From the NCBI GenBank assembly GCA_010093815.1, contig ML996589.1: DNA of 64,000 bases. One strand, 5' to 3'. How positions within the stretch are numbered: position 1 is the stretch's first letter; the number at the start of each line of letters is the position of its first letter. Under the pieces are notes generated by a model. The model was given only the letters and a program-made list of their open reading frames with translations. It ran no database searches and was not told the DNA's origin. Position numbers and translations under genes: made by a program. Positions 5,205 through 64,000 of this stretch are shown here, piece after piece. Source of the DNA: Pseudovirgaria hyperparasitica. Taxonomy: Eukaryota.

Positions 5205-5235
5205 TTATTAGTTAAGGGTAGCCCTTAACTAATAA
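5205..5235. repeat. 31-bp palindrome, 2 nt upstream of the LINE-A ORF1 ATG
   Basis: ttattagttaaggg-tag-cccttaactaataa; minus-strand ATG at 5202. Confidence 0.95.
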
Positions 5236-5471
5236 AAGGGGGTTAGCGTGTCGGCGTTTATTAGATATAGTCTATACTCGTGTTATCGAAGAGTCTTCGA
5301 GCGTATATATATAGTATCTCTATACGTTAGTATCGTCGTGTATTATACACTATACGTACGCACGTGTGTCGGAGGTTGTTATACTCGGTGTGCTCTATCG
5401 TTTGATGTATGTAAATCGCTGTTTTACCCCGAATTGACTAGTTTAGTCCGTTAGGGTGTAAGAAGTTTTTT

Positions 5472-5526
5472 ATAGCTATATATATAGTTCTTCCTAGTTA
5501 AATACTAATATTATTATTATTATTAT
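5472..5526 (+). mobile_element. 3' remnant of another LINE ((TTA)n tail)
   Basis: ttcctagttaaatactaatattattattattattat resembles the 3' ends of LINE-A and LINE-B (cctagtt...aatattattatt). Confidence 0.5.
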
Positions 5527-7126
5527 AGTAATACCTCTTTAATTAGTAATAAGATATTAATATATATCTAGATAATACTCTAGTTATAGCTATTAAGTCT
5601 ACTTTCTATAATAAATAATAGAGTCTTATTTATTAAGTTAATATCTTTATTATTAGAATCTCTATCTCTATTATCTATAAAGATATCTATATTAACTACT
5701 ATTTAGATACTACTCTAATATATCTACTAGAAGAGAAATTTCTCTATATACTTATTAATTATAGTTTAGAGCTTAAGGCTATACTCTATAAAGTTATAAT
5801 AGCTATTCTAGTATATCTTAACTAGCTTAATAAGCTTAGTAGAAGTAAAGTTTATATCTAAAGTAATTATATTCTTATTATACTATTACTTCTATATAGT
5901 AATAAATTTCTATTATCTCTTAGCTAAGTAATAGATAAATATCATAATTAACTATAGTACTATAATTAGTTCTATTTTCTACTACTCTTATAGAAAGATA
6001 AGCTCTATAATAAGGTTCTTAGATAGGTTATTAAAGGTATTCTTATCTTTACTAAAAAGTAGAGACTAGATAATAAGATTAAGAGTATATAGAAAGTAGT
6101 TAAGCTATAAGAACTTACTTACTCTAGAAAGAGCTTAAGAGAGAAGTTCTATGGCCCTAGTATTATTACTTACTCTATTAAGAATAAAGTAACTAATCTT
6201 ATTCTTAATTCTATATCTCTTAAGTACTATAAGAGTTAAATCTCTAAAGCTTTTACTAGTATAGCTATCTCTAATCTTAGATAATTCTAAGGAGATATTA
6301 ATAAAGCTACTCTCTTTATTTATAAAGTACGCTATATAGAATTATAGAGATAGATAGTAGTTCTATAAACTCTAGCTATTAAATATAATATAAATCTTTA
6401 AGATAGTAGTACTAAGAATCTTATAAAGGTATACTAAGCTATATCTATAGGTATTTAAGATATAGCTTTAAAGGGTATCTATACTCTTCTATATTAAGGC
6501 TTCTATCTCTAGATTTACTCTTAAAATAGCTTTATAGAGATAAGGGTTTTTAATAATATAAAGAGACTATAAGTTAAGTATAATCTACTTTACTAGTAGC
6601 TAATTAAATCTATTAGAATAAAAGGTCTAGATAAGTAGATTTACTATATTCTAATCTATTCTAGCCTTCTTAACTATTATCTTTAGTATATTACCCTTCT
6701 TATACTTTCTCTTACTACTTAGATACTACTAGTATATATTATAGAGATAGTCTATAGTATTAGTAGTTAACGCTACCTTAAATCTTCCTTTTATATATTT
6801 CTCTTTATAGTAGATTTAATACTACTAGTACTTATCTCTATTACTAATTTACTCTAGATAGAAACTATACTTCTAGATCTAATTAAGTTAAAAACTTCTT
6901 TTACATCCCCAAGAGGCTAACTTAGTCCATTCGGGGTAATACAGCGAGATATACACCTTAATTAATAGAGTATACTAAGTATACTAACTACTACTATACG
7001 TATGTACGTGTAGCATCGAAACTAAGACGTTATCGCCGTGTAAAGATATATATATACCCTCTTAAAATCCTCACGGAGATAGAGGCACGGACTACGCTAC
7101 TAGAACGCCGATACGCCGACCCCCTT

Positions 7127-7157
7127 TTATTAGTTAAGGGTAGCCCTTAACTAATAA
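7127..7157. repeat. 31-bp palindrome just before the LINE-B ORF1 start
   Basis: ttattagttaaggg-tag-cccttaactaataa; start codon (RIPed to ATA) at 7160. Confidence 0.95.
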
Positions 7158-7159
7158 AT

Positions 7160-8623
7160 ATAGCGGCCTTAGGCACCGATATACCCCGGTATATACCGGA
7201 TATACCCCCACCGGTACGATAGAAAAGGCCATATAGCGATATTACTAAGGGTAACCATATACCTATCTAAAACGTAGAATACACCTAAAGGCGCACGCCG
7301 CCATAGATAGACGGAATAAAGGGGACCCTAAGAGGGGAAACCCTTCTAGATCGTATCGACTACTAGGTAGTATATATAGAGAAGGAAGCCGGAGAGGGCT
7401 AGAAGACCCTCCTATATATATTCTAGAACCTTATCTAGAATCTAAAGGGAATTACGGAGGAGGAGAAGAAGATATAACTAGGAGGACTAGAGGACAGGCT
7501 CGACTAAATAGAGGCTAGCCTACGTAGAATCTAGGAGGAACTTACTTAAGGTAAGCGCCCTAGTATATAGGTATAAATAGTAGTAATACTAGAGGCTATA
7601 CTATAGGCCCCCCGGACCGGTAACGCGGCGTATAGTATACGCGTTATAATCTAGGATAAGGATACCCTAGTATAGGTCTAGTAAGCATCCCTAAAGGATA
7701 TAGTAAGTAAGATTAATAAATAAAAGGGAATATAGTTAAACGTCGTCGCCGCTAAACTCACGCTAGGAGGAGTAGTACTTACCACGATAACGAATATTAC
7801 GTAGTAGACTATCTTGCGTAATCCGAACGCGATTAGTAGTATCTTCCTAGGCGCCTCTATTAGGGCGGCTATATACCCGATATAGGTATACTCTATGCCC
7901 GTAAGCGGATAGGTTATTAGAGAAGAGGATATTACGCGGATAGAATAGTTAAACAAGCGAAAATACCTAGGGATTAAGATCGTAAGAGTATAGTAGAAGA
8001 ATATATAAGGGATTAAAACCAGATCGAAGGTATACTCTACTATAATAGTAGAGCTTAAGGACCCCGCCCTCGCGTATTAAATTATATAAGAGGGATTCCT
8101 AGCGGAAGGGGAGCTTCTTATAGCGGAACCATAGGATAGAGCATAGGCGATAATATAGTGCTTTAACTATTAGGGATACGGGTATACGGTATAGCGGTAC
8201 TCCTAAAAGACTAGGTATAGGTAGTATTAATAAGAATATAGTACCTAGGAGTACCCCTACGGGACACGAGGAGAGGGCTAGAGGGATAGAGATACGGCGA
8301 AGTACTCTAACTACGACGGTAAGTACCCGTCGTGGTCGGCTACGTACGCGAAACGTAAATAGGTTACTAAATATATCTACTTAATCCGGATAAAGGGAGT
8401 AAGATAGCTATAAATAATGCGATCTACTACTATTCCTCTCTTTACTATAATACTATTACTATAGACTACCTCCTTATAAGGAAGCGGTTAGGAATGGTAA
8501 ACCGTCCCAAGAAAGCTAATAATAGAACGGCCCTAAGGAATTACTAAGGCCGCCGCCGTACGAGGATAGTCGCGTCTTAGAGGAATAAATATATAGGTCT
8601 ATATATTCCCTAGCACCTAATAA
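7160..8623 (+). pseudogene. LINE-B ORF1 (gag-like, CCHC zinc knuckles)
   Basis: De-RIPed QCFNCQGYGHTxQRC near 8155 and a further CxxCxxxH knuckle near 8300. Its stop overlaps the ORF2 start (inferred ATGA, RIPed to ataa, 8620-8623). Confidence 0.8.
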
Positions 8624-11600
8624 GAGACTAAGATATACTCCTAATTATATAGATAAACGTATAGTATAAACGTAAGAACTAGACGATACTCCTCGAGGAG
8701 ACCGGAGCTATAATACTCGCTATATAGAAGCTATATAAATACTACTAGACGAATAAACCAATAACACACCTAGGATATTATATAATACACCCCCTAGGAC
8801 CGGAGAGGAGAGTCCTCTTCTATATCTATAAGTCTATTCTACTCTTATTATAGTTATATACTAAACGGGATAACCTCCGGATAACACTATACCTCTAGAT
8901 AAATATTAGACCCCTCTACATATATAATATATATAATTAGAACCGATCGCTTTAGGCGGATAATATACTTAAGGGCACTACCGAGCTAGGATAATACATC
9001 CTCCTAGGAGACTTTAACCTCTATTATAGCTAGTAGGGTGGACTAACTATTACCCGCGAAGAGCTTCGAGCTAGAGAACTACGTACCTAATACTATAGCT
9101 TTCTATACCTTCTTATACTAGTAGAATAGATTACCTAGCGAAAATATAAATAAGATAAGGGCGGATCCATACTCGACCTTACCCTAGCCACTAGATATAT
9201 TTATAATAGAACTTAATACTACCGCCCAAGCCTTATATAGATAGACTCCGACTATAAATGCATGGAGACTATAATAGACGTATCTACCCCTTAAGACTAA
9301 TAAGGGCGATAGCTATAGAAGGATACTAACTAGGAAAAGTACCTAAAGGACCTGGAATTAATAATCCTAGACCCGTCTATAGTTAATATATCTAATGGCC
9401 CGGCTATCGACCAGGCCGTGAATACACTCCTATAGGCGTACTAGGGAGTAAGAGATAAACACGTGCCGTACCGAATATATAGACCCCTAGACCCGAAAAG
9501 TATATCTTAAGTATAAGAGTATAGGCGAGAAGTCCGGAGATTATATATACGCGTATACTATAACCGTATACCTAAAGCATAGGATAAATAGAGAGAGGCG
9601 AGAAGATAATAAGATAAGGTCCTCCGTAACGAGCGACGTAAATAGTAGCGTATAGTCACGGATAGATATACACGTAATACTACTAGACTATAGTATATAG
9701 TAAAATAGGCTAAAAGCACCGCCTCCCCGACACCTATACCACTTATACCTCCCCTTATATATTAAGAAAAGACGTACTCCACGAGCCTCGAGAAAATAGA
9801 GATTCTATAAGAGGTTATGTTCCCTCTCCTAGAACCCGTAGACCTATTAGATATTAATAGCACGGAATACCCGGAAGCTATAAGTATCCCTAGGGAAATC
9901 ACGGACGACGATATACTCGGCGCTATTAAGACACTCCTAAATAATAAAGCGCCCGGGCTAGATAGAATTCCGAATCGATACCTTAAGAGGACTATATAGG
10001 CGACCTTACTAATTATAGGCCATATATTCCGAGCGTGCGCCCGTATAGGATACTATCTATAGAGCTTCTAAACTATATACATAGTTATACTCCTAAAACT
10101 AGGGAAGAGCCTAAACACGCCGAAGGGATAGAGGCCGATCGCCCTCCTCTCCTACCTTAGTAAGGTACTAGAAGCTACGATTACTAAGAAGATAAGTATA
10201 GTAGTATAGGTACACGGCCTTCTCCTAGTAAACTAGAAGGCGAAGATATAAAGCTCCCTAATTATAGCTATTTAATATATCCTCGAGGTTATCTAGACTA
10301 TATAGAAATAAGGACGAGTCGTCACGCTACTCTCCCTAGATATAGTAGAGGCGTTTAATAAGGTAAACTATATAAGACTTATCTATAACCTCTAGATAAG
10401 GCGAATACCTAAGTAGATTATACGATTTATATAGTCCTTCCTCGCGTAAAGGACTACTTAAATATATATCCCCGGATACCGAAGCGAATATAAGGAGATA
10501 GTATACGGCATCCCGTAAGGGAGTACCATCTCCCCGATCCTCTTCCTCTTCTTTATAGTAGACCTCCTTTAGAGAATAGAATATATAGAGATAGTCGGAT
10601 ATATAGACGATATATATCTCCTCACGGTCGATAGTAGTACTAGTAGAACATGTACACGACTCGAACGAGACCACGAGAAATACGTCTAGTAGATAAAGCG
10701 CTACGGAGTAAAATTCGCACCTAAAAAATACTAGCTTATATACTTTATTAACCGCTATAGAGGATAGGCTACTAGGGAGGGGGCACGTCGCCCCTAAATC
10801 GACGCCTTTATAGAACTACCAGCATAGAGTATATAAGCACTCGGCGTCATAATTAATAATAAGCTAAAATAGGGACCATAGATGGCACACGCCGTCTCTA
10901 GAGCCCTCTAGGTAGAAACCGCTATACGCCGGATTACGGTATCCACGTAGGGAATAGCCCGGGATAAGGCGAGACAGCTATATATCTCCCTAGCACGCCT
11001 AGCCTTTATATATAGACACGAGTGCTAGTATACGGCCCTTATATAAGCTCGGCGGGTAAAGCTTAAGTCCATATAAAACCGTATACTCCGCCTTATCTCC
11101 GGTATATATAAAGCTACTAACACGACGCTCCTCCGACGCGAGATAAATGTAATAAGTATATAGGACTTCTACTAGATATAGAGACTTATATACTTTACTA
11201 AATAATAAGTATAAGAACGTGGAGGAGATAGGGTATATACCTTCGCCGTACTACGTACACGTATCTATACATATTACTAGGCCCTCCCTACTATAGGATA
11301 AACTCGAGTATAATATAAATACTATATAGAGGCGGACTCAAGCTAGACCGTGTAGAAGGTTTAAAATAACCCAGACACCATCCTAAGCTAATAGAGCCCT
11401 AAGGAGCTTAGCCGCGTTATATAGTTATAGATCTAGGATAAATAGAGGGAGGTACTTAAAGCCTAGTGGGCCTCCTAATAGAATAGGTATCTAGAATAGA
11501 TCTAAGGGCCTTAGAAGGAACTAAGTAAATAGATATATAAAGGGCTAACGAAGGCCTAAGCATCTATACTCCTCTAAGCCCGAATAGGCGCTATAGGTCT

Positions 11601-11922
11601 CCTATATTATCTCTACTAGAGAGGCGTTCTAGATATATCTTTCTAGTGCGAGGACTACGGCCGGAGAGGTATAATACGCCACTACCTTACGACGTGCTCT
11701 AGCCTCTATACCCTAAGATAAGCCCTCGTCTATATAACGAGGACCTCTAATATCACGCGATAGCTTAATAAGTACCCTAAGGACGTCGCCCGATGGATAC
11801 TCGTACACCTTCCTCTCCCCTAGTTCTAGTAGACCCGCGTATATATACCGGAAGAAGCCTAATATATGCCGGAAGAACCCTAGTATACGTTAGAAGAACC
11901 CCGGGAGAACGGCGATTATTAG
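8620..11922 (+). pseudogene. LINE-B ORF2 (APE endonuclease, reverse transcriptase, C-terminal CCHC)
   Basis: De-RIPed AIQEP, LLGDFNLHH, DSDH, KAPG, RPIALLS, GIPQGS, GYADD, CEDCGRRGxxRHYLTTC. Length 3303 nt, the same as LINE-A ORF2. Confidence 0.85.
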
Positions 11923-11946
11923 TTAAGGGTAGCCCTTAACTAATAA
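11916..11946. repeat. 31-bp palindrome overlapping the LINE-B ORF2 stop
   Basis: In-frame TAG at 11920-11922 lies in the left arm. Confidence 0.95.
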
Positions 11947-12570
11947 TCTCCGCACCTATACGTGCTACCTAAGGGTAAACTATTATAATATAGGCTATAG
12001 ACCTATAGATAGCCCCTAGGGCTATATATATATAAAGAACGAGAGGATAGATAGAGCGTAGTTATGGATATGAGGGAGTTTTTCCTATTTATAGGTTTCT
12101 TCTTATATAGTAGCTTAGACTAGAGGAGGCATGCGCCTATAGAGTGGTACTCTACCTAGTTTACTAATATTATTATTATTATACTTCTAGATCTAGCTAA
12201 ATACGTTTATATACCTAAGTAGTACTATAGGTTTTATAAAGTCTAGAAGATAGAATTATATAATATCCTTATATAAAGACTCTATATCTAGGCCTATAAA
12301 ACTCTAGGAATCTTTATTATCTTTATCTTCCCTAGTACTATCTATCTCTATTATCTCCTTCTCTTATACTAGGTAGCTATATAGATCTTTAGATATAGAC
12401 TAGTATAGTATAGAGCTAGTACTAGATAGAGGTAGTAGTATTAGCTTATAGATAGTTATATTATTATTATTATCTTTATTATCTTTATTAAGAGGTAATA
12501 TATTCTAGAACTTTCTAGAACGTATAATTCTCTATATATACTTAACCTAGAAATATTACTATTTAAATAT

Positions 12571-12942
12571 TATGGAAGGCCGCTCCTACAGCCCCACATG
12601 TATGTGTCCCTGGCTCGATTACATGGCTCATTGTATATTTAAGGAGGGCGTTTTCCTTGGTCATTCTGCTCGGCACGCTTCCCCCATCACGAATATTCGA
12701 CGATTCGACCTTTCCTTACGTTCATGGGCCTCTATGGGTATTGATTATTAGGCTTAGCTATTGATAAATTGATTAAGAGTATTATATAGACCCGTCCTAT
12801 CGTAAAAGAGAACTAATAAGAAGTCGTGCGTTCAAAGAGAACTCATAATACCTGGGAGAGATACTTGTGAGTTCGTCGCGACTACTATACTAAGAACACA
12901 GCCATTTACAAAAAGGGACATACGTGGTAATAGCTTATTACA
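12571..12942 (+). repeat. 5' LTR of gypsy copy 1 (372 bp)
   Basis: Direct repeat of 23610-23981. Confidence 0.95.
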
Positions 12943-12946
12943 ATTT

Positions 12947-12963
12947 TAGAGGTCGTACCCGGA
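12947..12963 (+). promoter_or_regulatory. Putative primer-binding site
   Basis: tagaggtcgtacccgga (de-RIP TGGAGGTCGCACCCGGA), 4 nt after the LTR; identical at 50819-50835. Confidence 0.6.
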
Positions 12964-13444
12964 CCGCGAACTTACAGGGGGAGATTAGGACTCCGAAACT
13001 AGCTTAGGGGAAGTATATGGCGTGCCTAATAAGGTAGTCTAGACTTACTAGATCGAAGCCACGAGTCCGGAAAACAGGGAGTCTAGAGTCGCTAGGGGCT
13101 AGCCTCTTAAAAGTAGCCGTAAAAAGCATGCGCATGCTAACACGGGTAATAGCGCGACTCGAAAATGTCTTAGGGGAATAGGATAAAACAGGGCCAGATA
13201 AAGCAGCAAAGAAGAGTTCAAAAACGACAAATACAACCTGTTTAGTGCTACTATAGCTGTTATTCATAAACACGGCCACACGAGTACACCACTTTAGGAA
13301 CGCCTTATACGAAGATAATAACATAAGTAGAATACCATGAACCTTATATCGATAAAGACGATAGTAATAGTTCACCTTATAAAGGGATTAATTAACATAA
13401 AGAAGGGATAATAGGTGTTATGGGTAGACGCATTGGGCCAACCT

Positions 13445-13472
13445 TTAGTTAAGGCAATCCCTTGACTAATAA
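13445..13472. repeat. Degenerate copy of the 31-bp palindrome
   Basis: ttagttaagg-caat-cccttgactaataa; keeps the un-RIPed TGACTAA. Confidence 0.85.
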
Positions 13473-13557
13473 CCTTACCCCTAGCGTCTCTACTAGCACA
13501 CCTACTACTAGTAATGGTGCGATAGGAGCTTAAAACGACCTAGTAACTCGTAGAGAG

Positions 13558-16500
13558 ATGCTTAACTTCTTCGTAGCATTTGCGCGACAAGGAAGGATGG
13601 TACCTCTATCTACTCTAGCCCCCGAGCGCTTTGAAGGAATAAACATTACGGCCTTCCTTCGGAAGTACGAGGACATATATATAAACTATAAAGTTCCGCC
13701 TAATAAGAAGATAACCTCTCTACCGTTATACTACGAGGACTATCTCCGTCCTACTATTAAAGGAATGGGTGGGTTTTAGAAATAGTAGTGGGCCACACTA
13801 CGTAAAGAATTATTAAAGGAATTCTCTCTATTTGACTCCGCCCTCGAGGAAGGCACCATCTACTTTATCCGAAAATACGTAGAAATGGTTAAAGCAGACC
13901 CATCCTACTCTCTCCCCATGTACTACTCCCGGTATCGTGTTATTACGGAGAAACTTACGGCTAAAGGAAGCCTAAGCTCGTATTCGCGAATAGAGCTCTT
14001 CCTAGAAGGGCTGCCTAATAGTCTTAAGGCTCGGGCTATAGAGAAATATTAACTCACGATGGAAGTACATAGTTACGACTAGGTAATTATCTATGGCTTC
14101 GTATTACGAAAGGCTAGAGTACTTAAGGAACTAGCTCGTATTAACAAGCACTTAGCCGCATAAGAGCTGGCCATAGCCATATACCATAAATCAAAGATAG
14201 GGAGTAAGAAGACTAGCTTAGAAGAGCAGTTACATGAAGAAAGAAGAACTAATGAATTTAGCCACCCCTTTCTAGTTAAAGTATATATCGCGCTAGGATT
14301 GGATAAGTTCAACGAGATAGTAGAGAGATTTAGTAAACTAGACCTCACGTCAATTAAGATAAAGTCCTACTTTACCTCTAATCCCTTATTCTCATCCCTT
14401 AAGAAGTACGAACCTAAGCTACTTTCGGCTATTATTAACTAGTAGGCGCGAAGGCTAAATCTTTTAACACACCCCTAAGTACGAGGCATGCCTATAGAAC
14501 TAACGTAAGTTTATCTATAGAATTATATATAGAATAGAGAATACGTCTCCACCCGAGACTCCTAAGGAGGCGTTATAGCCTAGGATAGGCCTCGAAGACC
14601 GATCGTGTGCATCACGTACGGAGGAGATTACCTAATATATAGATGTCCGGAGATGGTAGGATACATTAGAGACGGATTACTAAATATTAACGGGGTGCGA
14701 GTATTCCGAGGGCGTTTCGGGGCAAACGGAGAAGAAATTCTATTACTACCCTCCTCGGTAGGGCCATAAGCTACCCTATAAGCTATCCGGAACTACGTAG
14801 TAACGGTTTAAAACGGCCTAAGCTAGTACGGAGAGGGAGTAAAGGTTTCTACGTCCGTAGTAAACATTAACGCTTTATAGGGAGTGCCGGTATATAGTAT
14901 TAGTGCAAAATCTATAAAGGGTCCCTACTAGGCCTCGGCGGACAGCGATTCGGAAGAAGAAGTTACGTCGCCCGAGAGTAAGAAAGATAGATATATAGAA
15001 TTCCACGAACGCTTCGACGTGGCTAGTAATAGATATATCCGCGAGGAAATAGCCCTAGAAGAGCCTACTATACTTGTAATATCTAGAAGGGGGATCACGA
15101 AGAGTACACCTAATTATACTAAGGAAAGAAAGATCGCCTATCTCCGCGGAATACGTGAAGGGTAGTATATAAGAATTATTAAGGAATAGGAGGACGGCGA
15201 GAAGAGTGGCGACTAGAGAACGTCTAAATAAGAGCTAACGGCGCCTAAGGATAAGATGGATAAAGGGGATGGCCTAAATCCTAGTTAAAAGGCACGTATC
15301 CGAGGCGTTAAGCTTAATAACTATCTACGCGAGGGACAGCGGCTAAGCATAGAAGCTAGCGAAGCATGGCTGGTACGCGTTCTAGGGACAACTATAAATA
15401 TTACTATTAGCGAACTATTAAGCCTTAATAGTAACTTACGTCGTGCGGTGTTCGAGAAGGGCGCCCCCGACTTCATAGCTAGAGAGGTCCGCGAGGCTCG
15501 AGAGGAGAGAGCTAAGAAGAAAGGAAGAAACGACCATGCCATGGCTCCCGAGATAAATAAACTTAATATATTAGCACCCCTCTATGCCACGGGGACGGCC
15601 ATTATATAATAAGACATTAATTAGCTTAAAGAAGGGATAGTAAGGCTAGTGGCCGAGTGTCCGAGGTACCCCGTGGAAGTTAGTCCTAAAAGGGCGACTA
15701 GTATAGTACTATTCGATAGTAGCGCGTAGGTAAATGGCATTCGACTAGATGCTACGAGGCGTCTCGGGCTAGCGATATCTTCGCTTCTACCATATATAAA
15801 GAACTCGAGTTTAGTTAGCGCTACTTAGTATAGTACTCTATTCGTGGGAATAGTATAGTAATGCCCTATCCGCATAGGTCGGATCGTTACGGCCACTTTA
15901 ATATTTATATATAGCGAACTTAATTATGACCTTATCCTAGGGGAGCCATATACTAGGCAGGCCTTACTTACGGTGTAGAGGTCAGCCTCCGGGTAAGTAC
16001 TCTTAATAGTCTACTCCGTATATAGATAAGAACGTGTAACCTTCGAAACTAGTCTAGACGAGTATATTCTAGTCTTAGAGAAGGAGGGTAACTCCGTGGC
16101 TAGAGACTAACTATATAGCGGAGTATGTTACTAGAAGCCGGAGTTAAGCCGGATTATTAGTTAAGGGCTACCCTTAACTAATAATCCGCACTAAATAGGG
16201 TCCGGTAAACCTACTAACGAAGGGGATAGGATATATTTTTATACGGATATAGAAATAAGTTATATAGAGTTGCTTTCCGAGAAAATCCGGCCTAAAAATA
16301 TTACTTAGTTATCGAGAAAAGATAACTTAGCCGCCCTAGTTACGGCGGCAAGGTACGCTGCCTTTATACATAAATAAGGTACGATAATAGAATAGCTTAT
16401 AGTAGGCTCCACCGGCCTCTAAAGACGGTATTCATCCGGGGTATTAAAGGGATTTAGTATAGCTACCATATATAAAAGAAAGGGAGTTAAAGTACACCCC

Positions 16501-19500: not shown

Positions 19501-19821
19501 ATCTAGTCCGTGTTTAATTATACTTATAAGCTCGCGGAGCTTAATAGAGCCATACTTAGAGGGACGTTTCCTAGCCATAGGTTAAAGAAATATTTTATGA
19601 GAAATATAAGTAACGAGAGTCATGACGAGCTCTCGCGACTACTAATTAGAAGAATTACCGAGGAAAATAAGGAGAGTAGCGATAAGGAAAACTATTATAA
19701 ATAACTTACGGAACACCTCGACGACGCCACACGAACCCGGGTGGAAGTGGTGATTCCTACTCCGCAAGGCTTTAATAGAGAGAAATATTTACGTTTCCCT
19801 AGAATCGATATCTCCTTCTAG
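13558..19821 (+). pseudogene. gag-pol polyprotein of gypsy copy 1 (single frame; true start may lie upstream)
   Basis: De-RIPed CITCGGDHxxxRC knuckle (~14610), protease LFDSGA (~15710), YKRKGVKVHPVD, RT LPQGATNSVAQFVR and FLDDLGIKGP, RNase H VDSS...ADGISR, integrase HHCC and GPY motif; no chromodomain. Confidence 0.9.
16154..16184. repeat. 31-bp palindrome (18-bp arms, 16150-16188) inside gag-pol between protease and RT
   Basis: cggattattagttaaggg-cta-cccttaactaataatccg. Confidence 0.95.
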
Positions 19822-20152
19822 GGGATAGAAGTTTTTTTAAGGAGGGAAGGAATGCTTGTAAAAGTAGTCTTATAACGATGAACTCTATTATCGAAAGAGG
19901 ATGATAAACCCTATCATTACTATAAAATAATAAAACCCATTATTAAAGTAAGCAATGCTCGAAAGAAGACATAATGGCGTTTACGCGAAATTCCACCTAC
20001 CACATATTAAAACCGGTCGTGTAATCGAAGCCTACCTATCGAAGGCCTATTTCGTTACTATAGAACGGGCCCTATTAGGAACTAATAAGGAAGAAAAGAA
20101 GAAGAAGGTATAAGAGAAAAAGATACTTATAGGAAGTCTTATAAGGATGAGA

Positions 20153-20255
20153 ATATACCCGGTATCTATTCATTTATAGATTCCGCTATATACCCGGTAG
20201 ACACATTTATTCATAGATTTCCTATATACCTAGTATATATTCATTCATAGATTCG
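20153..20255 (+). repeat. Three ~35-bp tandem units (atatacccggta..cattcatagatt) upstream of ORF3
   Basis: Units start at 20153, 20188 and 20224; also present in copy 2 (~58030-58130). Confidence 0.75.
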
Positions 20256-50497: not shown

Positions 50498-50814
50498 TAT
50501 GGAAGGCCGCTCCTGCAGCCCCACATGTATGTGTCCCTGGCTCGATTACATGGCTCATTGTATATTTAAGGAGGGCGTTTTCCTTGGTCATTCTGCATGA
50601 CACGCTTCCCCCATCACTAATATTCGACGATTCGACCTTTCCTTACGTTCATGGGCCTCTATGGGTATTGATTATTAGGCTTAGCTATTGATAAATTAAT
50701 TAAGAGTATTGTATAGACCCGTCCTATCGTAAAAGAGAACTAATGAGAAGTCGTGCGTTCAAAGAGAACTTATAATACCTGGGAGAGATACTTACGTGGC
50801 GATGGCTCATCACA
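50498..50814 (+). repeat. 5' LTR of gypsy copy 2 (317 bp)
   Basis: Direct repeat of 61486-61802. Confidence 0.95.
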
Positions 50815-51318
50815 TTTTTAGAGGTCGTACCCGGACTACGAACTTACAGGGGGAGATTAGGACTCCGAAACTAGCTTAGGGGAAGTATATGGCGTGCCTA
50901 ATAAGGTAGTCTAGACTTACTAGATCGAAGCCACGAGTCTAGAAAACAGGGAGTCCGGAGTCGCTAGGGGCTAGCCTCTTAAAAGTAGCCGCAAAAAGCA
51001 TACGCATGCTAACACGGGTAATAGCGCGACTCGAAAATGTCTTAGGGGAATAGGATATAAAATAGGGCCAGATGAAGCAGCAAAGAAGAGTTCAAAAACG
51101 ACAAATATAACCTGTTTAGTGCTACCATAGCTGTCATTCATAAACACGGCTATATAAGTATACTACTTTAGGAACGCCTCACACGAAGATAATAACATAA
51201 GTAGGATACCGTGAACCTCATATCGATAAAGACGATAGTAATAGTTCACCTTATAAAGGGATTAATCAACATGGAGAAGGGATGATAGGTGTTATAGGTA
51301 GACGCATTAGGCCAACCT

Positions 51319-51346
51319 TTAGTCAAGGTAATCCCTTAACTAATAA
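51319..51346. repeat. Degenerate copy of the 31-bp palindrome
   Basis: ttagtcaagg-taat-cccttaactaataa; keeps the un-RIPed TTAGTCA. Confidence 0.85.
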
Positions 51347-51434
51347 CCTTACCCCCAGCGTCTCTACTAGCACACCTACTACTAGTAATAGTGCGATAGG
51401 AGCTTAAAACAACGACCTAGTAACTCGTAGAGAG

Positions 51435-54400: not shown

Positions 54401-57400
54401 AAAGGTCCCTAGGAATCCATTAGGGTATCTAGACTAGCGTGAACGAGCAATCGCATAGTAGGCACTTCTTCCGGCCGTGCACCTAGGCCTTAACGTGTTT
54501 AATAGGCTAATAGAGCCTCGAAGGGTAACTATCCCGCTAGGAACACATCTAACGCCTCTACGTATAAGTTAGCTAAAGATTAGAATAGAGCTACGTCCCG
54601 CGGAACTTAAGTTACTATATATGATCTTATTATATCGCGAGGAAGCACTAGCATGGGAATTCTCACACCTTAGTAAATTTAATAAAGAGGTGGCACCTCC
54701 GCAGGAGATCCGAACGGTAGAACATAAGGCATAGTAGGCTAAGAACTTTAATATTCCTAGAGCCCTTTATAGGAAGGTACTCACGATCCTAAAAGAGCGT
54801 CTTAATAGTAGAAGGCTCGAGCCCTATAGTAGTCCTTATTAAAACGTCTATTTTCTCGTGGAAAAGAAGAAGGAAGCCAATAAGGAACGAGATCATAGGT
54901 TAATCAATTCGGCGATAGAAATCAACCGAGTTACTATTCGTAATGCGGCCACGCCGCCCTCGTATAAAGAATTCTCGGAGCACTTTACGGGGATAGCCGT
55001 CTTGACATTTACCGACTTCTTCTTAGAATATAATTAGATTCCATTAGTAGAGCATTACCGAGACTTAACGGGGTTTATAACGCCCCTAGGATTACTACAT
55101 GGGATAATATTACCTTAAGGGGCCACTAATTCAGTAGCTTAGTTCGTTAGGATTATATTAACTATTATATAAGAACATATCCCGGAGAGGGCTCTACCAT
55201 TCCTAGATAACTTAGACATTAAAGGACCCACGACGAAATATAACTCTAAGGAGGCCCTGCCTAGAATTCGTAGGTATATCCTAGAATATTTAATTAACGT
55301 GGATAAGGTTCTCGCGGATATAGAGCGCGCCGGATACGCCCTAAGTAGTAAGAAGACTTAGTAGTATGTTAAAGCCGCTAACGTTATAGGATACGTCTAC
55401 GGTATTAAAGGGAGGCGACCGAGTAATAAAAAGGTTACTACTATTAGGGACTAGAAACCCTATAAAAACACGACGAATGTGCGAGCCTTCCTTAGCGTTT
55501 ATATATATTTCCGGATATAGATCCCCGGGTACGCTATTATCGTATCGCCGCTATTTATACTATTAAAGAATAAATCGGCCTAGTAGTAGATAGCTAAGGA
55601 GTAGACCTCGATGGACGCGCTAAAGATAGCTCTAACCACTACTCCTGCACTAATAACGTTACGGTACGGGATAGGTACGGGAGACATAATCCTAGTAGTA
55701 GACTCTAGTAACGTTAGGTAGGGGGCTATATTAATATAGGAGAACGAGGATTATAAACGTTAGCTATCGCGGTATAATGGAGGAATATAGTCAAAAGCTA
55801 AGAGAAACTACGACACCGTGAAACTAGAGTGCCGAGCCCTCCTCCACGCGTTATAGAAGTTCCGGTAATACCTCTATAGTACGTACTTTATTATGGAAAT
55901 AGACGCGAATACTCTAGTTACTTAAATTAACCGTACCGTAACTAACTTGCTAGGGGCGCTCGTTACCAGGTGGCTCGCGTGGATTTAGCTATAGAACTTT
56001 ATAGTTAGGCATGTACCTAGGAAGCGTAACGTAGTCGCTGACGGTATCTCACGGATGTACAAAGGAGAAGAACTACTAGACGTCCCTACCTTTAACCTAG
56101 ACGAGTTCGTGGACATGGCTCTATATATAGACGTGCTAGAGATATCGTTAATTAAGCCTATTAGCGGGAGAGATTATATAATAGAGATACTCGACTATAC
56201 CGCCATTAAGTCTCCCTTAATAGATGAATATAGCGATAAATAGTAGAGGATTATGAAGTATCTTACTATACTCAAGAGGCTAACCGACCTAACCGACCGA
56301 GCGTATAAGGCCTTTATAACCGACTACCTAAAGTTCCTCGTGTATAACCGAATACTCTAGCGGAGAGGAGATGGGCATCGCTAACACACACGAGTAATTA
56401 AGGATCCGAATACTAGGGCGCGTATAATTACTACTACTTATAACGAGATAGATTATAGAGGCAGCGAAGGGACCCTCGGAAGGATTAAGGATAAGTATTA
56501 GTGGGTAGGTATACGTAGAGACGTACGATAGCACGTGAAAACCTATAATAAATGTTAACGACGAAGCAAGCTCCTTAGAGGTCTTGATAAAGGGCTCTAC
56601 CACGTTATAACGCCTATTCTTTAGTAAAGAATGCACTTAGACGTAACGATACTACCACCTTCTATAGGGTATAGTAAAGTGGTATCTATACGAGAATAGC
56701 TAAGCGGATAGACTAAGGCGGAGGCATGTACGGCGGCCACGTCCATAGTCGTCGCAAAGTTCCTCTTTAAGAACGTGATCTATAGATATGGAATTATTCC
56801 TAAAATCACCTATAATAGTGGTAGAGAAAATATAGGTGCCATAGAGGAGCTCCTCCGACTCTATAGAATTTATTAGAAGGTTATATCTATATATAATCCC
56901 CGAGTAAATGGGATTATTAAGAGAAGTTTTATACTACTCGCTAATACTCTCGCGAAGATAACTAATGGCGGATTCAAGAACTAGCCCGACTACCTCTATA
57001 CGGTCGTCTAGGTAGATAGAATAACGACACGTGCTAGTATAGGGTATAGTGCCGTATACCTCGTGCTCGGCTATAAACCAATCATGCCTATCGAAGTCGA
57101 ATTTAAGTCGCTCCGAATGCTCCCTTAGGACAAGGTGCGATTAACGTCCGACTTACTCGCTCTTTAAGCTAGATAACTTAAGAGAAGATCCGAGGATCTT
57201 AAGGAGGCCCATGCCCACGCGACACGAACGCGTAAGGAATTAAGAGAGGCATGGAATAACGACCATTACCTTCGTTAAGAGTCGTTACTAGTCGACACGA
57301 TTATCCTCCTATACGACTCGTAGTAATAGAAGGACATAGGGCGAAAGCTAAGGTAGCATTAGAGGGGGCCATATAGAATCTAGTCCGTGTTTAATTATAC

Positions 57401-57698
57401 TTATAAGCTCGCGGAGCTTGATAGAGCCATACTTAGAGGGACGTTTCCTAGCCATAGGTTAAAGAAATATTTTATAAGAAATGCGGGTAACGAGAGTCAC
57501 GACGAGCCCTCGTGACCACCGATTAGAAGAATTACCGAGGAAAATGAGGAGAGTAGTAATAAGGAAAACTATTATAAATAACTCATGGAACACCTCGACG
57601 ACGCCACACGAACCCGGGTGGAAGTGGTAATTCCTACTCCGCAAGGCTTTAATAGAGAGGAATATTTACGTTTCCCTAGAATTAACATCTCCTTCTAG
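51435..57698 (+). pseudogene. gag-pol of gypsy copy 2
   Basis: Same motifs as 13558-19821 (offset 37877); the protease motif reads FDSGA here. Confidence 0.9.
54031..54061. repeat. 31-bp palindrome inside gag-pol of copy 2
   Basis: Identical to 16154-16184. Confidence 0.95.
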
Positions 57699-58353
57699 GG
57701 GATAGAAGTTTTTTTAAGGAGGGAAGGGATGCTTATAAAAGTAGTCTTATAACGATAAACTCCATTATCGAAAGAGGATAATGAACCCTATTATCACTAT
57801 AAAATAATAAAACCTATTATTAAAGCAAGCAATGCTCGAAAGAAGACATAATAGCGTTTACACGAAATTCCACCTACCATACATTAAAACCGGTCGTGTA
57901 ATCGAAGCCTACCTATCGAAGGCCTATTTCGTTACTATAGAACGGGCCCTATTAGGAACTAATAAGGAAGAAAAGAAGGAGGAGGTATAAGAGAAAAAGA
58001 TACTTATAGAAAGTCTTATAAGGATGAGAATATACCCGGTATCTATTTATTCATAGATTCCGCCATATACCCGGTAGATATATTCATTCATAGATTTCCT
58101 ATATACCTAGTACATATTCATTCATAGATTCGACACGTATACGGGCCTACGGCCGTTGGCAAGGATCATTCATAAAAATCACTATATACCCGGCATTCGA
58201 GGAGGCATAAAAAGAGAACTTAAGATAGTATATAACTCTTCCCTCTTACACCTCTCTATACCTCCTTAATTAATAAAACCTCCTCCTCTACTTCCGCCTC
58301 GCTTAAACCACCTCTCCTTAGAACGTAACTCGCCGATAGAACTAATAATAATA

Positions 58354-61314
58354 ATGGCCCCGCCGAAGAAGAAAACGCCTACCCGTAAAGAGTTATAAGA
58401 TCGTTAAGCACTAATAAGATAGACGCGGTCCTAGTCAAGAGTCGTGAGTACTAAAGTAGGGCTATTAACGGCTATCGTAGTATCGAGGCCATCTACTACT
58501 CCGCACGGATAGGCTATAGAAGCTGCGGAAATAAATAAGTCTACTATTAACCGAATTATCGCTATCTAGGACCCGCAAGAGCGATGGGACTATATTCTAG
58601 ACACGTTTAATAATCTCCTTCATATTACCAGCCTCGTAGAATAGCTCTTAAGTAGTATAGTTAACCTCTTCTAGGAAGTAGGAGCCGTAATAGGGTATAG
58701 TAAGGCAAAGATTAACTCCTCTATTCCGAAAGAAGTCTACGAGATGATTCGTCGTAGAAGAGACACTAACTCCCGCATCCTAAAAGCCAAAAATGCAATC
58801 CTATAAAACTAGCGAAAAGATCTCCCTAATAATAACGGCTAGTTACTCTAATCCGCCCTCGGATAGCTCTAGTAAATATAGAACTTTATAGAAAAGCTAG
58901 TAGCGCTCTTATAAGTGCGAACATGGGCGAGAGCGAGAAACTAGTTAAACGCATCCCTATAGTCCCGAATCGGCTAGGGATAGAAGGGAAGGGGAATCAA
59001 GGCATATCTTTAGAGCTCTAATATTAATACCGCCCTAGCTAGCGATAGTAACAAGGACGGCCTATCTCTCTAGTAACTCTTAAACTACCCTAGCCGATAA
59101 AATGAACTAACGTTCTATAACGAGACGGGACTTATTATCCCCGCTAGTTAATAGTTACGGATAAGTAGAATGGTTTATAGGCCCGTCGAACACTACCTAT
59201 AAATTAAAGAGATAAGTGCATCGCCTCCGCCTTAGACCTTACTATCGCTAAAACTAGCGTAGGTAACGCCCGCGGTAAAGTCCCCTCCATAAAGTACGCC
59301 TCCTAGTTTAGTAGTATATCGTCTCTTTAAAGCTAGTCGTCCGTTCGAAGTAAGTATTTCTTCTACTACTACTAGTAAACGTCCCTTACCGGGCCATGCG
59401 AGAACGTCTTTAGTGCCCGTCACGGCCACGCCGATAAAACCTACTCGCGGACGTGCCTCATCTACCGGCCCTTAGTAATTACTAGGGGCGCCTACACGAT
59501 AATCCCCGGTTATTCTTAGTTTATACTCTAAGACGATAGCATCGGTCGAGGAAGAGGACGAGCCTAAGAAGTATCGATGCGCGCCTTTAGTGACGAAGAC
59601 TTTTAAGGTAGCTATATCATTAAAGAAGAATTTCACGAGTATTAAGGGAATAGCCCTACTAGTGCGCTAGAAAGCGTAGATAGGTAATATGGCTGTTCCA
59701 TATAAAGTCTACTATAAGCATTACCAAGACGTGGCTAGAAAGAATAATATGCTCGTTAGCGTGTCCTACTTGAACCTAGTAGCGAGACTTAAAATGGTAT
59801 ATGAGTTTAGAGATAACGTAGGGGCCCTTAAAGTTTATAAGGACCGCTATACCTGGTTCGCGAAGTACGCGCGGCCACCTTATCCGATAGAGGCATTAGG
59901 TATCTATCGTTACTAGGCCCTAGAGACCCTGAAGTAAGTTATTAATATTAAAACCATCCTTACTAGTATCGTATTTATAATTTAGAAGGAGGACGGTAGG
60001 ATAGGTAGGTAACTCTTCGACGAGTGGGAACGTACCGGAAGTATTAACATTAAAGGGCTCTTCGAGCTACTTAAAAAGACGACCTCTATACTTAATAAGA
60101 GTATCCTAGAACTCGTGAGGGATTAATTTAATATATATAAGTACCACCAGCGCATGATTAATAAGAAATCGAACTACGGCTAGCTACAAACTATATACCA
60201 CTCCTATATCTAATAGTTTATTAGGTAATACCTACTTTACTAGCTCACCTATGTCGCTCTTCGGCCCGATCTTAACCACTATCTAATCTCGTACCCGTAC
60301 TATGCGAAGTCCTAGAATAGGGGCGATAAGACGGGTTTTAAGCATCTCGATAACGCCATCAATCGAATCCTCGATCCTAGCGATAGACACGGGTTTAATA
60401 TAATCTAGGGGAGTATTAGTCTCGACGACGAACGAAGTAACGACTATACCATAATCGTTCCCCGCTCCTATAAGTTCTTAAACGAATGGTAGTCGAAGGC
60501 TAAGCTCCGCGAGGGGGTCAATCGAAACGGTATAATCACGGCTATTAACGATAAGATCTATAATACGGACGATAGGAAACGATTTAGTCCCTTCGTCCCG
60601 GTCCCCTACTAGTCCCTTAAAGTACGTATCTCTAGCCCACTAATAATGCACGGCGCCTAGGGTCCCGTAAAGGGTGGAAGACGCACGATGCTTCCATGGT
60701 ATATCGCGATTGGCTCTAATTATATAATAATGGAAGTGCCTAAAATGGGCATATAGGAACAACTCGCAGCAGCTCATAGGAATTTAACTCCGGGACCCAC
60801 GTCTCCGTCGGGATTTTCTAATAAATACGGCGCGATTTCTTTTGCCTTCCCAGCCGTAGTTTAACTCCCGAGTTTTAACGCCGTTAGCGACGTATTAGTC
60901 GGCCGTAAAAGATAGGACAGCTAGGAGGTAAAAGAAGAGGCAGCTGCGTGGCTTAACGCAAGTCCTTAATAACTTAAAGCCAAGGTAGACGCCTGGTTTA
61001 AGGAGGGCTCGAGGGTATTCGTGGAGACCTTTAAGAAAATGGTAAGGTAGAAAAGGCTAGTCTATGGGGATAGGTCGTTCTGGAAGGAATTTAACGAGGC
61101 GCGCGCCGCTAAGCGGCTAATTAATTTTAAGAAATTCGAGCCCGACGCGGGCCTAGATAATATTAAAGAGAACTTCTACGGATAGGAGAGGCCTAACGAA
61201 CTATCCGACGAGGAGGAATCTAACCTCTCTAAGATAAGCGACACGATTCTTTAGGAGCTGGCTCGCGACCTTGAGTACTAAGATTAGACGCCTGAAAACC
61301 TACCTAATTATTAG
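58354..61314 (+). pseudogene. Gypsy ORF3 copy 2, PhyH-like Fe(II)/2OG dioxygenase-domain protein (RIP-inactivated)
   Basis: Constant offset of 37876 to copy 1 at the start, HxD (60343), distal His (60649) and end. ORF-track 59689-59916 is in this frame. Confidence 0.78.
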
Positions 61315-61338
61315 TTAAGGGCTGCCCTTAACTAATAA
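61308..61338. repeat. 31-bp palindrome at the end of ORF3 copy 2
   Basis: Identical to 23432-23462. Confidence 0.95.
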
Positions 61339-61485
61339 TCCGGGCTAAGGTTTACCCGTGCCGAGAGGTTTACTAGGGGCGCATTTTATTTATATTAAGG
61401 TCTTTCTTTTAGGCGTTCTTCACACGGTTTCTCACACGGTTACTATACTACTAAGGGTAGTAGTTCTATGGGCCGGGGAGGTATA

Positions 61486-61802
61486 TGTGGAAGGCCGCTC
61501 CTACAGCCCTATATGTATGTATCCCTAGCTTAATTATATGGCTTATTATATATTTAAGGAGGGCGTTTTCCTTGGTCATTCTATATGACACGCTTCCCCC
61601 ATCACTAATATTCGACGATTCGACCTTTCCTTACGTTCATGGGCCTCTATGGGTATTGATTATTAGACTTAGCTATTAATGAATTAATTAAGAGTATTGT
61701 ATAGACCCGTCCTATCGTAAAAGAGAACTAATGAGAAGTCATGCGTTTAAAGAGAACTCATAATACCTAGGAGAGATACTTACGTGGCGATGGCTCATCA
61801 TA
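61486..61802 (+). repeat. 3' LTR of gypsy copy 2
   Basis: Starts with un-RIPed TGTGG, ends tcata (TCACA), followed by TSD gtac. Confidence 0.95.
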
Positions 61803-63094
61803 GTACTTAGCTATATATAAATCTATAATTCTATAAGTATTATATTTATATATATATCTAATTAAATCTATATAACGTTATTAATAGTCTTTATATTAGT
61901 AAACTTAAACTCTAGTTTACTTTTATTTATACACACGCTTATCTCTTACTTTCTAGCTACTACCTTAGAGATAGCTTCATAGGTTATATAACCGCTATAT
62001 TAACTAAGCTTATATTTAGTTCTCTTATTCTAAATTTTCTTCTTTAATATATCTACCTTACTCTTAAGATAAGTTATTAATTTATATACTATCTTCTTTA
62101 GTTTAGATCTATTTAGGTCTAGAGTAGTCTATTCTTATTAGAGCTAGTTCTATATAATCTATTCGCGTTATTATAGTTACTAATTTAGCTTCTTTAATCG
62201 CCTTTAAGGCTAAACGGATATTCTACTATTAGATCTCTAGCTAATATATATATATAGATATCTAATACTAGTTCTATTTCTAAGTCTATCTCCTCCTCTT
62301 ATAAGACTTACTCTAAAGGGATTATCTCTACTCTAGCTATACCGGCTAAAAAATCCACTTATTATAGTAGTATAAAGGCGTACTCTAAGTTAGAGAAGAA
62401 GATAGCTAAGGCTACTACTACTATTACTACTAATATAGCTACTAGTCACTCTAATCTAGGTAATTCTAGTACTAGTATTATAGAAGAGATAGCTATAAAG
62501 CCTATCTATATCTACTTACGCTATCTATCTACTCTACCTTCTTTAGAGAATAAAGAAGATCTTATTATAGATAATAATTAAGAGTTCATACCTTCGCCGC
62601 CCCGCTCTAAACGCTATTTCTCTTTTTAGTCTAATATAGACTAACTTAGTTACTCTAGGTTCTTTAAGGACCTTAATATTTACTCTAAACCTAGCTCTAG
62701 TAATAATAAGGTCTAGGTTACTAAAGATACTAAATATAGTTACGGTTTACGCCATAGAAAAATAGTAAACTATAGTTTAATATACTTTAAGTATATTAAG
62801 GCTTATATAACCGGCTCTAAATATCTCTTCTACTCTAACTCTAGTATTAGCTACTACTCTACTAACTATAATAGGTCTATATATCTAATCTTTAAGCTCT
62901 CTACCCGCTACCGCTACTATACTATCCTTAGTAAAGTTTATCTTTAGGTAAGTCTATTAGACTATTTTAGTCTAGAGTAATCTAAAGTTATCTATACTAA
63001 TATATTTTTAGGTTTCTATTTATATATAGAATATATATAATAATCTTCGCGTCTATAAGACTCTTAGTAGTTTTAGTAATTATCTAGCTTCTAT

Positions 63095-64000
63095 AATAAT
63101 AATAATAATAATATTATATAACTAGGTAGAGTAGTACTCTACAGGCCTATGCCTCCTCTAGTCTAAGCCACTATGTAAGAAGAAACCCCATAGGGAAAAA
63201 CTTCCTTATGTCTATAACTACATCTCGTTAAACCTCTGTTTCGTCTTAAGTATATAGCTATAGGGTACGCCTATTAGCCTATAGCCTATATTACCGTTAT
63301 TTTACCCTTAGGCAGCACGTGTAGATGCGGAGGTTATTAGTCAAGGGCTGCCCTTAACTAATAATCGGGGTTCTCCCGGGGTTCTTCCGGTATATGTCGG
63401 GTTACTACTAGCGTATGCCGGGTCTCTTCCGGTATATATTTCCGGGTCCACTAGTACTAGAGGAGTAGTAGATATATAAGTATCCATCGGGAGACGTCCT
63501 TAGAGTACTTATTAAGCTATCGTGTAATATCTAAAGTCTTCGTGACGTGGATAAGCTATTACCGTTATATATAGAGGTTAGGGTATATAGCTAGATAGTG
63601 GCGTATTATATCTCTCCGGCCGCACGCCTTACACCATAGAGACACGTTAGGGACGCCTCTCTTATAGAGGTAGTATAGGAGTTCTATAGCGCCCGTTCGG
63701 GCTTAGATAAGTATAGATGCTTAGGCTTTCGTTAGCCCTTTATATATCTATTTACTCGGTTCCTTCTATAGCCCTCGAATCTACTCTAGGTACCTATTCT
63801 ACTAGGAGGTCTAGTAGGCACGGAGTGCCTCTTTCTACTTATCTTAAGTCCACGACCGCATGTTTTTCACGAGTTCTTAAAGGCTCTACCGGTCTAGGAG
63901 AGCGTCCGGGTTATCTCGGACTTCTTATACTACTTAGCTAGAGTCGGCTTCTATTAAGCACCTGTACCGTATTCGATTCCGGCCTATATATAGGAGTGCG
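63095..64000 (-). mobile_element. Tad1-like LINE, subfamily A, copy 3 (3' end; runs off the window)
   Basis: Colinear with 40289-41190 including the tail; less RIPed. Confidence 0.93.
63334..63364. repeat. 31-bp palindrome at the LINE-A copy 3 ORF2 stop
   Basis: ttattagtcaaggg-ctg-cccttaactaataa; keeps the ancestral C. Confidence 0.95.

Follow-up and report, generated by a model that had tools for sequence, protein, structure and literature searches.

A 31-base palindrome common to two unrelated fungal retroelements points to a shared signal or a very small inserted cassette

The stretch of Pseudovirgaria hyperparasitica DNA analysed in this work (64,000 nucleotides of contig ML996589.1, assembly GCA_010093815.1; hereafter the window) contains, according to self-BLAST, four copies of one non-long-terminal-repeat element and two copies of an 11.4-kb long terminal repeat (LTR) element (Table 1). 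The first is a long interspersed nuclear element (LINE) of the Tad/I-like class, with an RVT_1 match (E=1e-10), the motifs GDFN and APGxDG in its translation, a 12-bp target-site duplication (TSD; AGATATTAATAG) and a (TAT)n tail; in its copy c3 the first open reading frame (ORF1) codes for CCHC knuckles and ORF2 for endonuclease and reverse transcriptase (RT) parts. The second belongs to the Ty3/gypsy class, with an RT_RNaseH match (E=1.4e-14) and LTRs of 374 bp; copy 2 has a perfect 5-bp TSD (GTACT), and the flanks of copy 1 (ATATT/ATATA) are compatible with one. These matches, TSDs and LTRs agree with the carriers named in a first-pass annotation of the window, made from its letters. Between unrelated retroelement classes one would expect no sequence in common. 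Both of these elements carry the same 31-base palindrome, which points to a common signal or to the insertion of a very small cassette, of a kind so far undescribed. Since LINE c3 and both gypsy copies have their own TSDs, the elements bearing the palindrome did transpose. What is new here is the 15+1+15 structure of the palindrome, the longer, eroded cassette to which it belongs, its position at ORF edges and the conservation of its arms.

The exact pattern TTATTAGTYAAGGG-NNN-CCCTTRACTAATAA has ten matches in the window, at the same ten positions that the first-pass annotation had listed, and none in 100 dinucleotide shuffles of it; relaxing the pattern to three mismatches added no further copy in the window. 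Two diverged copies, also reported before, were found again, with half-site pairs at both (variant starts 13445 and 51319, the 31-bp core running from 13442 and 51316). The 10-nt half-sites occur 12 + 12 times in the window and are paired without exception. A scan of the whole window that tolerated repeat-induced point mutation (RIP), with up to 10 mismatches, returned only the ten exact copies and the two variants, at six mismatches; the background in five block shuffles was a mean of 0.4 matches at nine mismatches and 1.0 at ten. Solitary arms were sought with up to three mismatches, and the 29 matches comprised 22 arms of the 12 copies and seven with three mismatches, where chance gives 8.3. 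In these scans the palindrome was found neither in the nonribosomal peptide synthetase (NRPS) gene and the copia element of the window, as had been claimed, nor in its remainder. Judged by their flanks, the 12 copies reduce to five independent sites, two in the LINE (A and B) and three in the gypsy element (C, D and E), the number per element proposed at first. Outside the window, the 31-bp and 25-bp patterns gave 0 loci in a metagenome contig collection, and pattern scans of genome contig and viral contig collections gave 0 loci each.

Table 1. Palindrome sites, carrier elements and the third gypsy ORF in the window
Feature	Position	Strand	Remarks
Site A, LINE 5' side	45301..45331		LINE copy c3, subfamily 1; 237 nt from the element's 5' end
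Site A	5205..5235		LINE copy c1, subfamily 1
Site A	7127..7157		LINE copy c2, subfamily 2, opposite orientation
Site B, LINE 3' side	40524..40554		LINE c3
Site B	63334..63364		LINE c4; sole exact copy with one un-RIPed arm (C at 63342)
Site B	11916..11946		LINE c2, subfamily 2, inverted; arms extend to 20 nt at 95% complementarity
Site E, gypsy, past the 5' LTR	13442..13472		Gypsy copy 1; diverged variant
Site E	51316..51346		Gypsy copy 2; diverged variant
Site C, gypsy, between the protease and RT parts of pol	16154..16184		Gypsy copy 1
Site C	54031..54061		Gypsy copy 2
Site D, gypsy, ~150 nt ahead of the 3' LTR	23432..23462		Gypsy copy 1
Site D	61308..61338		Gypsy copy 2
LINE c3, full length, 5282 nt	40286..45567	-	Own TSD, (TAT)n tail; heavily RIPed
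LINE c2, second subfamily	6874..12204	+	73% identical to c3
LINE c1	508..5471	-	3' end broken at 508 by other repeats
LINE c4, 3' part	63076..64000	-	Truncated by the window end
Ty3/gypsy copy 1, 11.4 kb	12571..23983	+	LTRs 12571-12944 / 23610-23983
Ty3/gypsy copy 2	50498..61800 (start approximate)	+	93% identical to copy 1
Gypsy ORF3, 986 codons, frame 3, after pol	20478..23438; copy 2: 58354-61314	+	MAPPKKK...ENLPNY

Because the first and third bases of the presumed loop are complementary (C and G), the palindrome is an odd one, 15+1+15, whose sole free position is the centre, A or T. The core is identical across sites A to D, and at site A the centre base of LINE subfamily 2 is the complement of that of subfamily 1. 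At site E the 10-bp arms TTAGTYAAGG/CCTTRACTAA are kept and the centre and one outer end are altered: all six differences fall there, and none in the 20 middle arm positions. The RIP index (CpA+TpG)/(ApC+GpT) is 0.20-0.23 in the LINE and 0.42-0.44 in the gypsy element, as compared to 1.21-1.25 in the NRPS gene, and 9 of the 10 exact copies have both arms RIP-converted, in accordance with the RIP reading given in the first-pass annotation. Un-RIPed arms are limited to one at 63334 and one in each E copy, on opposite sides, and the heptamer TGACTAA/TTAGTCA is directly visible at 63337, 13463 and 51319. From the copies at 63334, 13445 and 51319 we infer that the ancestral state of the RIP-prone pair was C...G. 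An ancestral core had been read before from un-RIPed copies; the C...G state can indeed be deduced in this way, but the window has no copy with both arms un-RIPed. The two heptamers had also been placed about one helical turn apart, which has to be corrected, as they measure 18 bp from centre to centre, that is ~1.7 turns. Gypsy copies 1 and 2 differ by 706 transitions, 8 transversions and 120 indel columns, and in gypsy frame 1 (offsets 1035-7500) 87 of the 99 in-frame stops of copy 1 are shared with copy 2, despite their different TSDs. It seems that RIP hit the same codons in independent copies, or that the copies were RIPed jointly.

How far does the sharing between the two elements reach beyond the core? 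A lenient BLAST of both LINE subfamilies against the gypsy element gave 145 matches, the 14 best of which all lie on palindromes, and away from these sites no nucleotide likeness was seen, as expected from the earlier statement that LINE and gypsy elements have no nucleotide homology. The two longest matches join site B to site C, one over 60 nt (80%) and the other over 70 nt (75.7%). Of the 8 half-flanks of sites A to D, 5 contain the motif TC[CG]G no more than 6 nt from the core (background 2.1%, P=2e-7); an anchored ungapped comparison of B, on its ORF side, with C, on its upstream side, gave 14 identical nucleotides out of 21 (background P=3e-4, with 66 pairs tried); and flank identity averaged across sites is 0.40-0.57 for the 5 nt next to the core and falls to about the background of 0.26 farther out. 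Unanchored local alignment of the flanks (80 nt on each side) was not significant, with a best cross-family z of 2.4, and the 5' and 3' untranslated regions (UTRs) of the LINE had no similarity to each other in either orientation (z 1.8 and 0.2). The shared unit had been described as 31 bp long; this holds for the core, but the sharing reaches about 5 nt into each flank, and 60-70 nt between B and C. The picture that emerges may be that of an old cassette of roughly 40-70 bp, its edges eroded and its core intact.

The arms are better kept than their surroundings. LINE copies c2 and c3, compared over 5370 columns, differ by 1048 transition, 418 transversion and 48 indel columns, and since RIP cannot produce transversions or indels, the conservation test counts these two classes. 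They make up 8-12% per site in the 50-250 nt around the LINE palindromes and are missing altogether from the arms at A and B (P about 0.03-0.09 for each site, about 0.003 jointly). Conservation over the flanks, the lack of which had been named as evidence against a functional or mobile unit, is thus present in the LINE arms, and the single transfer with long flanking homology named alongside it is contradicted by five sites with differing flanks.

To judge by the reading frames, all five sites are at ORF edges or compatible with coding. The palindrome has a single open frame and contains stops in the other two. At site B, in the frame of LINE ORF2, it reads T TAT TAG, that is ..ENPNY followed by TAG (40548-40550, in the left arm) and later by TAA TAA, and in c3 a 3'UTR of 238 nt follows. 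Transversions between c2 and c3 by codon position are 19/6/33 (2400-3200), 8/3/29 (3200-3900) and 11/9/33 (3900-4600) along ORF2, the RVT_1 match being at about 3220-3840 of the sense strand; the 410 nt leading up to site B have 8/8/15 and 0 indel columns, and the stretch past it has 9/9/5 and 22 indel columns. In a related LINE protein, P0139 (29% identity), 140 residues follow a shared motif, and in the LINE studied here 137 residues lie between that motif and the TAATAA of the palindrome. The codon-position signal before and after B and this agreement in length both indicate that ORF2 ends inside site B. At the other end of the element ORF1 lies in frame offset 2 (transversions 20/7/7 at 800-1300, an excess at the third codon position). 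Read in this frame, site A holds a TGA, followed by CC and then by an ATG (45296-45298 in c3) in the context ACCATGG, and in c2, of subfamily 2, this ATG has been RIPed to ATA. ORF1 thus likely starts at the ATG 2 nt past site A.

In the gypsy element, frame 1 corresponds to gag-pol and has no TGA from offset 600 to 5400. All three gypsy sites begin at offset 1 mod 3, so that C and E are read in the only open frame of the palindrome within gag-pol, as ..RIIS(Q)GLPLTNNP.. at C and ..TFS(Q)GNPLTNN.. at E. Upstream of E, by 12-14 codons, there are two ATG in frame, and in each copy RIP has turned one of them into ATA. The gypsy copies differ in length by 3 nt (AAT, at 13533) between site E and the methionine of MLNFF.., a difference that is also present in contigs of run X1; being in frame, it hints that the stretch past E codes. 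Site D ends the third ORF of the element (ORF3), ..ENLPNY being followed by TAG at 23436-23438, and the final 19 residues of ORF3 and of LINE ORF2 are 63% alike, the rest of the two proteins having no match. A search at the protein level for an empty site C led to a closest gypsy relative that is 42% identical and can be aligned only from the RT onward.

What could this palindrome be? We tentatively favour the view, quite possible if still short of probable, that the cassette entered these elements on several occasions and was afterwards retained as a sequence-specific cis element; this functional proposal is built on one 64-kb window and one LINE subfamily comparison. The palindrome would be the core of a palindromic cassette of 40-70 bp that was built into five places of LINE and gypsy elements while both were active, through separate acquisitions that may have been insertions or RT template switching between retroelement RNAs. 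Selection would then have preserved the 10 bp in the middle of each arm (TTAGTCAAGG / CCTTGACTAA before RIP) while the flanks, the centre and the outer ends drifted, and the symmetric pair of sites would be read by a dimeric protein on DNA, or by a protein on the stem of an RNA hairpin. Later on, RIP changed CpA/TpG to TpA in both arms of most copies, a change that would destroy the TGACTAA-type site and keeps the hairpin. The arms are identical everywhere, with no compensatory change, which suggests that the sequence is read and not the pairing alone. The only candidate reader that can be named, by motif match, is a basic leucine zipper (bZIP) protein of the Yap/AP-1 type. In the available excerpt of PMC6545440, TTAGTCA/TGACTAA is among the Yap1 response elements, in keeping with its first-pass assignment as a Yap-type site, and the heptamer is contained in the putative pre-RIP arms. 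Each arm would thus have held one heptamer before RIP, the two forming an inverted pair; in contrast, a Yap1/AP-1 response element is 7 bp long and as a rule found in a promoter, whereas here 31 bp are kept, at positions that are mostly not those of promoters.

Several points weigh against a selected cis element. The bZIP heptamer covers 7 of the 15 arm positions and leaves unexplained the identity of the central GGGC-W-GCCC and of the outer TTA/TAA at sites A to D. A stop codon, the interior of pol and the neighbourhood of the 3' LTR are odd places for a promoter element, for which only site A, and perhaps E in the gypsy leader, are plausible positions, unlike B, C and D. Placed 2 nt ahead of a start codon, a hairpin with an energy of about -25 kcal/mol should hinder scanning, and immediately downstream of site A (268-500) no codon signal is seen (6/5/8). 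The arms show no compensatory change that would speak for the pairing as such. The extension of the hairpin into the flanks is weak in the gypsy element (z about -2 to -2.5) and not significant at the LINE sites. The tests of conservation were made post hoc and depend on a single pair of LINE subfamilies and one old variant, and a homing-type or recently spreading element would likewise show a core more alike than its flanks. A role in RNA at the edges of ORFs would suit the positions of the sites better, though we found no precedent for it.

A somewhat unlikely but serious alternative is that the palindrome is a passenger: a very small mobile palindrome, useless to its hosts, that a transposase or homing-type gene conversion brought into the two retroelements, that survived only where stops in two of three frames could be tolerated, and that was carried along as the elements multiplied. 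It would account for five independent sites in two unrelated elements, every one of them tolerable (an untranslated stretch, an extreme C-terminus, or an open frame in a linker or N-terminal region), and for the extended palindrome CGGA+PAL+TCCG at C, whose 39 bp amount to 13 whole codons. An A-T-C-C-G-G-like motif shared by the half-flanks after T-TA could be a target preference, and the likeness of the core over that of the flanks is also a signature of homing. However, no TSD can be defined at any of the five sites, a TA duplication inside T-TA...TA-A being indistinguishable from the palindrome itself; the window contains no solitary arm, no longer element with such ends, no insertion private to one copy and, in its 64 kb, no palindrome outside both families. 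The same two positions are occupied in LINE subfamilies that are about 10% apart in transversions and indels, which means that the cassette predates their split or that site-specific homing is needed.

Other samples were also consulted. From the contigs of run X1, 45,200 pieces could be placed, at a likeness of at least 80%, on 19 kb, with 30 of 30 bins covered and very high summed depth. No omission of exactly 31 bp at the palindromes, at a share of at least 5%, is listed among them, which is a weak argument against a passenger, since these contigs break at the palindrome, as a 31-mer common to several sites would make them do. Run X3, from a second sample of the same organism, has less-RIPed contigs that end or start at site A and two contigs that cross site B; run X5 gave short pieces only and run X6 nothing. 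Among the sequencing runs listed for the stretch there was no RNA run. LINE c1 was considered as a copy lacking site B and rejected, as another repeat interrupts its 3' end.

In the fullest form of the passenger idea, which we regard as unlikely, the palindrome would be a nuclear self-spreading micro-element of ~31-41 bp that colonises retrotransposons as vehicles by site-specific insertion or homing, and that survives in its one open frame or as a donor of stop codons to ORFs. Short palindromic mobile elements that insert in frame into genes are known from Rickettsia, as the Rickettsia palindromic elements, and from mitochondria, as the GC clusters; we know of no such element from a fungal nuclear genome. 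Like these, and like miniature inverted-repeat transposable elements (MITEs), the unit described here is a small palindrome present at many sites, in a frame-compatible way at C and E. In contrast to what is typical of MITEs, neither a TSD nor a solitary or empty site nor an autonomous partner was seen for it in the window, and its 31-41 bp are below the size of known nuclear MITEs; its two 15-nt arms do form terminal inverted repeats, as those of any palindrome trivially would. If it were a micro-element, it would be a eukaryotic nuclear counterpart of the in-frame palindromes of Rickettsia and of the mitochondrial GC clusters.

We consider it rather doubtful that what matters is neither a protein-binding cis element nor a passenger, but a structural hairpin of RNA or complementary DNA, with a stem of 14-18 bp in the retroelement transcript. 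Such a hairpin might serve pairing within or between RNAs (cyclisation, dimerisation, co-packaging or template switching) or control translation at ORF edges. All the sites lie in presumably transcribed parts of the elements, at ORF edges, and in five sense-strand folds of 71 nt, with energies of -23.0 to -29.7 kcal/mol (z -3.2 to -5.4), the hairpin is the dominant structure; a sixth, of the antisense strand at 63334, has -22.5 kcal/mol and a z of -1.2. Stem extensions specific to their context are present at C, D, E and at B of subfamily 2, and of the 10 exact copies 9 still pair after RIP. Within LINE subfamily 1 a central U in the 5' palindrome is matched by a central A in the 3' one, giving full 31-nt complementarity, but this complementarity of the centres is lost in subfamily 2 (A/A) and in the gypsy element (U/U). 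An examination of the arms of the window copies for covariation, a check already proposed with the first-pass annotation, found none: the same arm sequence recurs everywhere, including the old variant E, which points to a reading of sequence. Nor did Rfam give a match at the palindromes, either at the gathering score or with E up to 0.5.

Known signals of this type offer partial parallels. In HIV-1 the palindromic dimerisation initiation site (DIS) is such a dimerisation sequence. At the 3' end of LINEs, stem-loops are recognised by the element's own RT and are shared with partner short interspersed nuclear elements (SINEs). Site B likewise places a hairpin near the 3' part of a LINE and has it in common with another, unrelated retroelement. 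The known stem-loops, however, adjoin the tail, and the SINEs that have them too are non-autonomous and use the enzyme of the LINE, whereas the palindrome contains the ORF2 stop, is 238 nt away from the (TAT)n tail, has a second, 5' copy, and is shared with an autonomous LTR element. As regards dimerisation, palindromes (PAL sequences) serve RNA dimerisation in Ty1, according to the available excerpt of PMC6844567. Like these and the DIS, the sites described here are short self-complementary RNA sequences, the leader included, and identical copies could pair. Those signals are each specific to one family, 6-10 nt long and limited to the 5' region; here, in contrast, 31 nt are common to LINE and gypsy elements and stand in two or three places per element, ORF ends and pol among them. 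Site E belongs to the leader or to the N-terminus of gag, and site A is close to the 5' end of the LINE; B, C and D lie elsewhere.

That the sharing goes back to one transfer of a longer segment, to chance or to an assembly or adapter artefact is highly improbable: B and C do share up to 60-70 nt at 75-80%, but the five sites have unlike flanks, which excludes a single transfer, LINE-gypsy similarity is nil away from the palindromes, none of the 100 shuffles had a match, and the copies carry different RIP changes, have constant places in elements with their own TSDs and recur in the second sample. The adapter or assembly artefact was dropped on these grounds. An origin from an intron or a tRNA-like sequence was dropped as well, on reading the sequence and with no dedicated test; the lack of Rfam matches extends to the tRNA models.

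By titles and the opening lines of abstracts, the papers that contain the motif as a string deal neither with transposable elements nor with this motif, and topic searches (top-ranked results, with supplementary files outside their scope) found no palindrome common to retroelement classes. Exchange of modules between LTR and other classes has a precedent in bdelloid rotifers, where, according to the available excerpt of PMC5408684, extra ORFs are common to very different types of retroelement; there whole ORFs are exchanged, whereas here the shared module is a non-protein cassette of 31-70 nt. If the selected cis element is the true explanation and a common factor of the host or of the elements reads it, both elements would depend on that factor, and the palindrome would give a handle on how the retroelements of a RIP-competent fungus were switched on or handled. 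If the exchange took place at the RNA level, LINE and LTR elements would have been swapping material, and if a micro-element is at work, it would be a new and very small kind of mobile DNA. In any case the cassette is a practical marker, which shows the limits of the LINE coding sequence and the point where the unrecognised third ORF of the gypsy element ends.

This ORF3 is interrupted, in each copy, by 62 stops, all of them TAA or TAG, the RIP type, and by no TGA. Neither ORF3 nor any of six relatives tested (6/6) has a Pfam match. In a library of 1.84 billion proteins it has 653 relatives at E<=0.001, mostly of about 900 aa, and the family has invariant H-x-D...H residues. For one relative, P0143 (AlphaFold model, pLDDT 79.3), Foldseek matched the proline hydroxylase H11, SnoN and EctD (E 2e-5 to 5e-4), and the relatives of ORF3 are thus predicted to have a PhyH-like 2-oxoglutarate/Fe(II) oxygenase fold. 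A gypsy element of orchids reportedly carries an N6-methyladenosine demethylase domain (PMC9289625), a possible parallel to ORF3.

Some other observations concern the LINE copies and the DNA around them. A second perfect palindrome, TCTCCCCTAATATATTAGGGGAGA, with arms of 14-15 nt, is found in ORF2 of LINE subfamily 1 (42699-42722 and 2604-2625) and not in the gypsy element. LINE c1 contains 10 N at 1675-1684, and the alignments to c3 on both sides of this run (508-1674 with 40747-41913, and 1685-5471 with 41781-45567) overlap by 132 bp, so that it looks like a scaffolding gap with redundant ends. The repeats at 1-507 of the window, which interrupt the 3' end of c1, consist of a tandem 15-nt unit (GACTCTAATTCTATA-like) followed by a translation like the N-terminus of a copia-type integrase (..HERLGHIN..CEICIKSK..). 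The NRPS gene (A, T and C domains, that is adenylation, thiolation and condensation) occupies 24575-27467, 33399-39657 and 45600-50500 on the - strand and is broken up by two elements, a copia element (RVT_2, 27.5-33.4 kb) and LINE c3; past the latter lie strongly RIPed AMP-binding remnants of it. The cluster appears to have been destroyed through transposon insertion and leakage of RIP, and the nearest named relative of the NRPS, at 78% identity, is from Lindgomyces ingoldianus, so that the sequence by itself would probably be assigned to a Pleosporales-like ascomycete.

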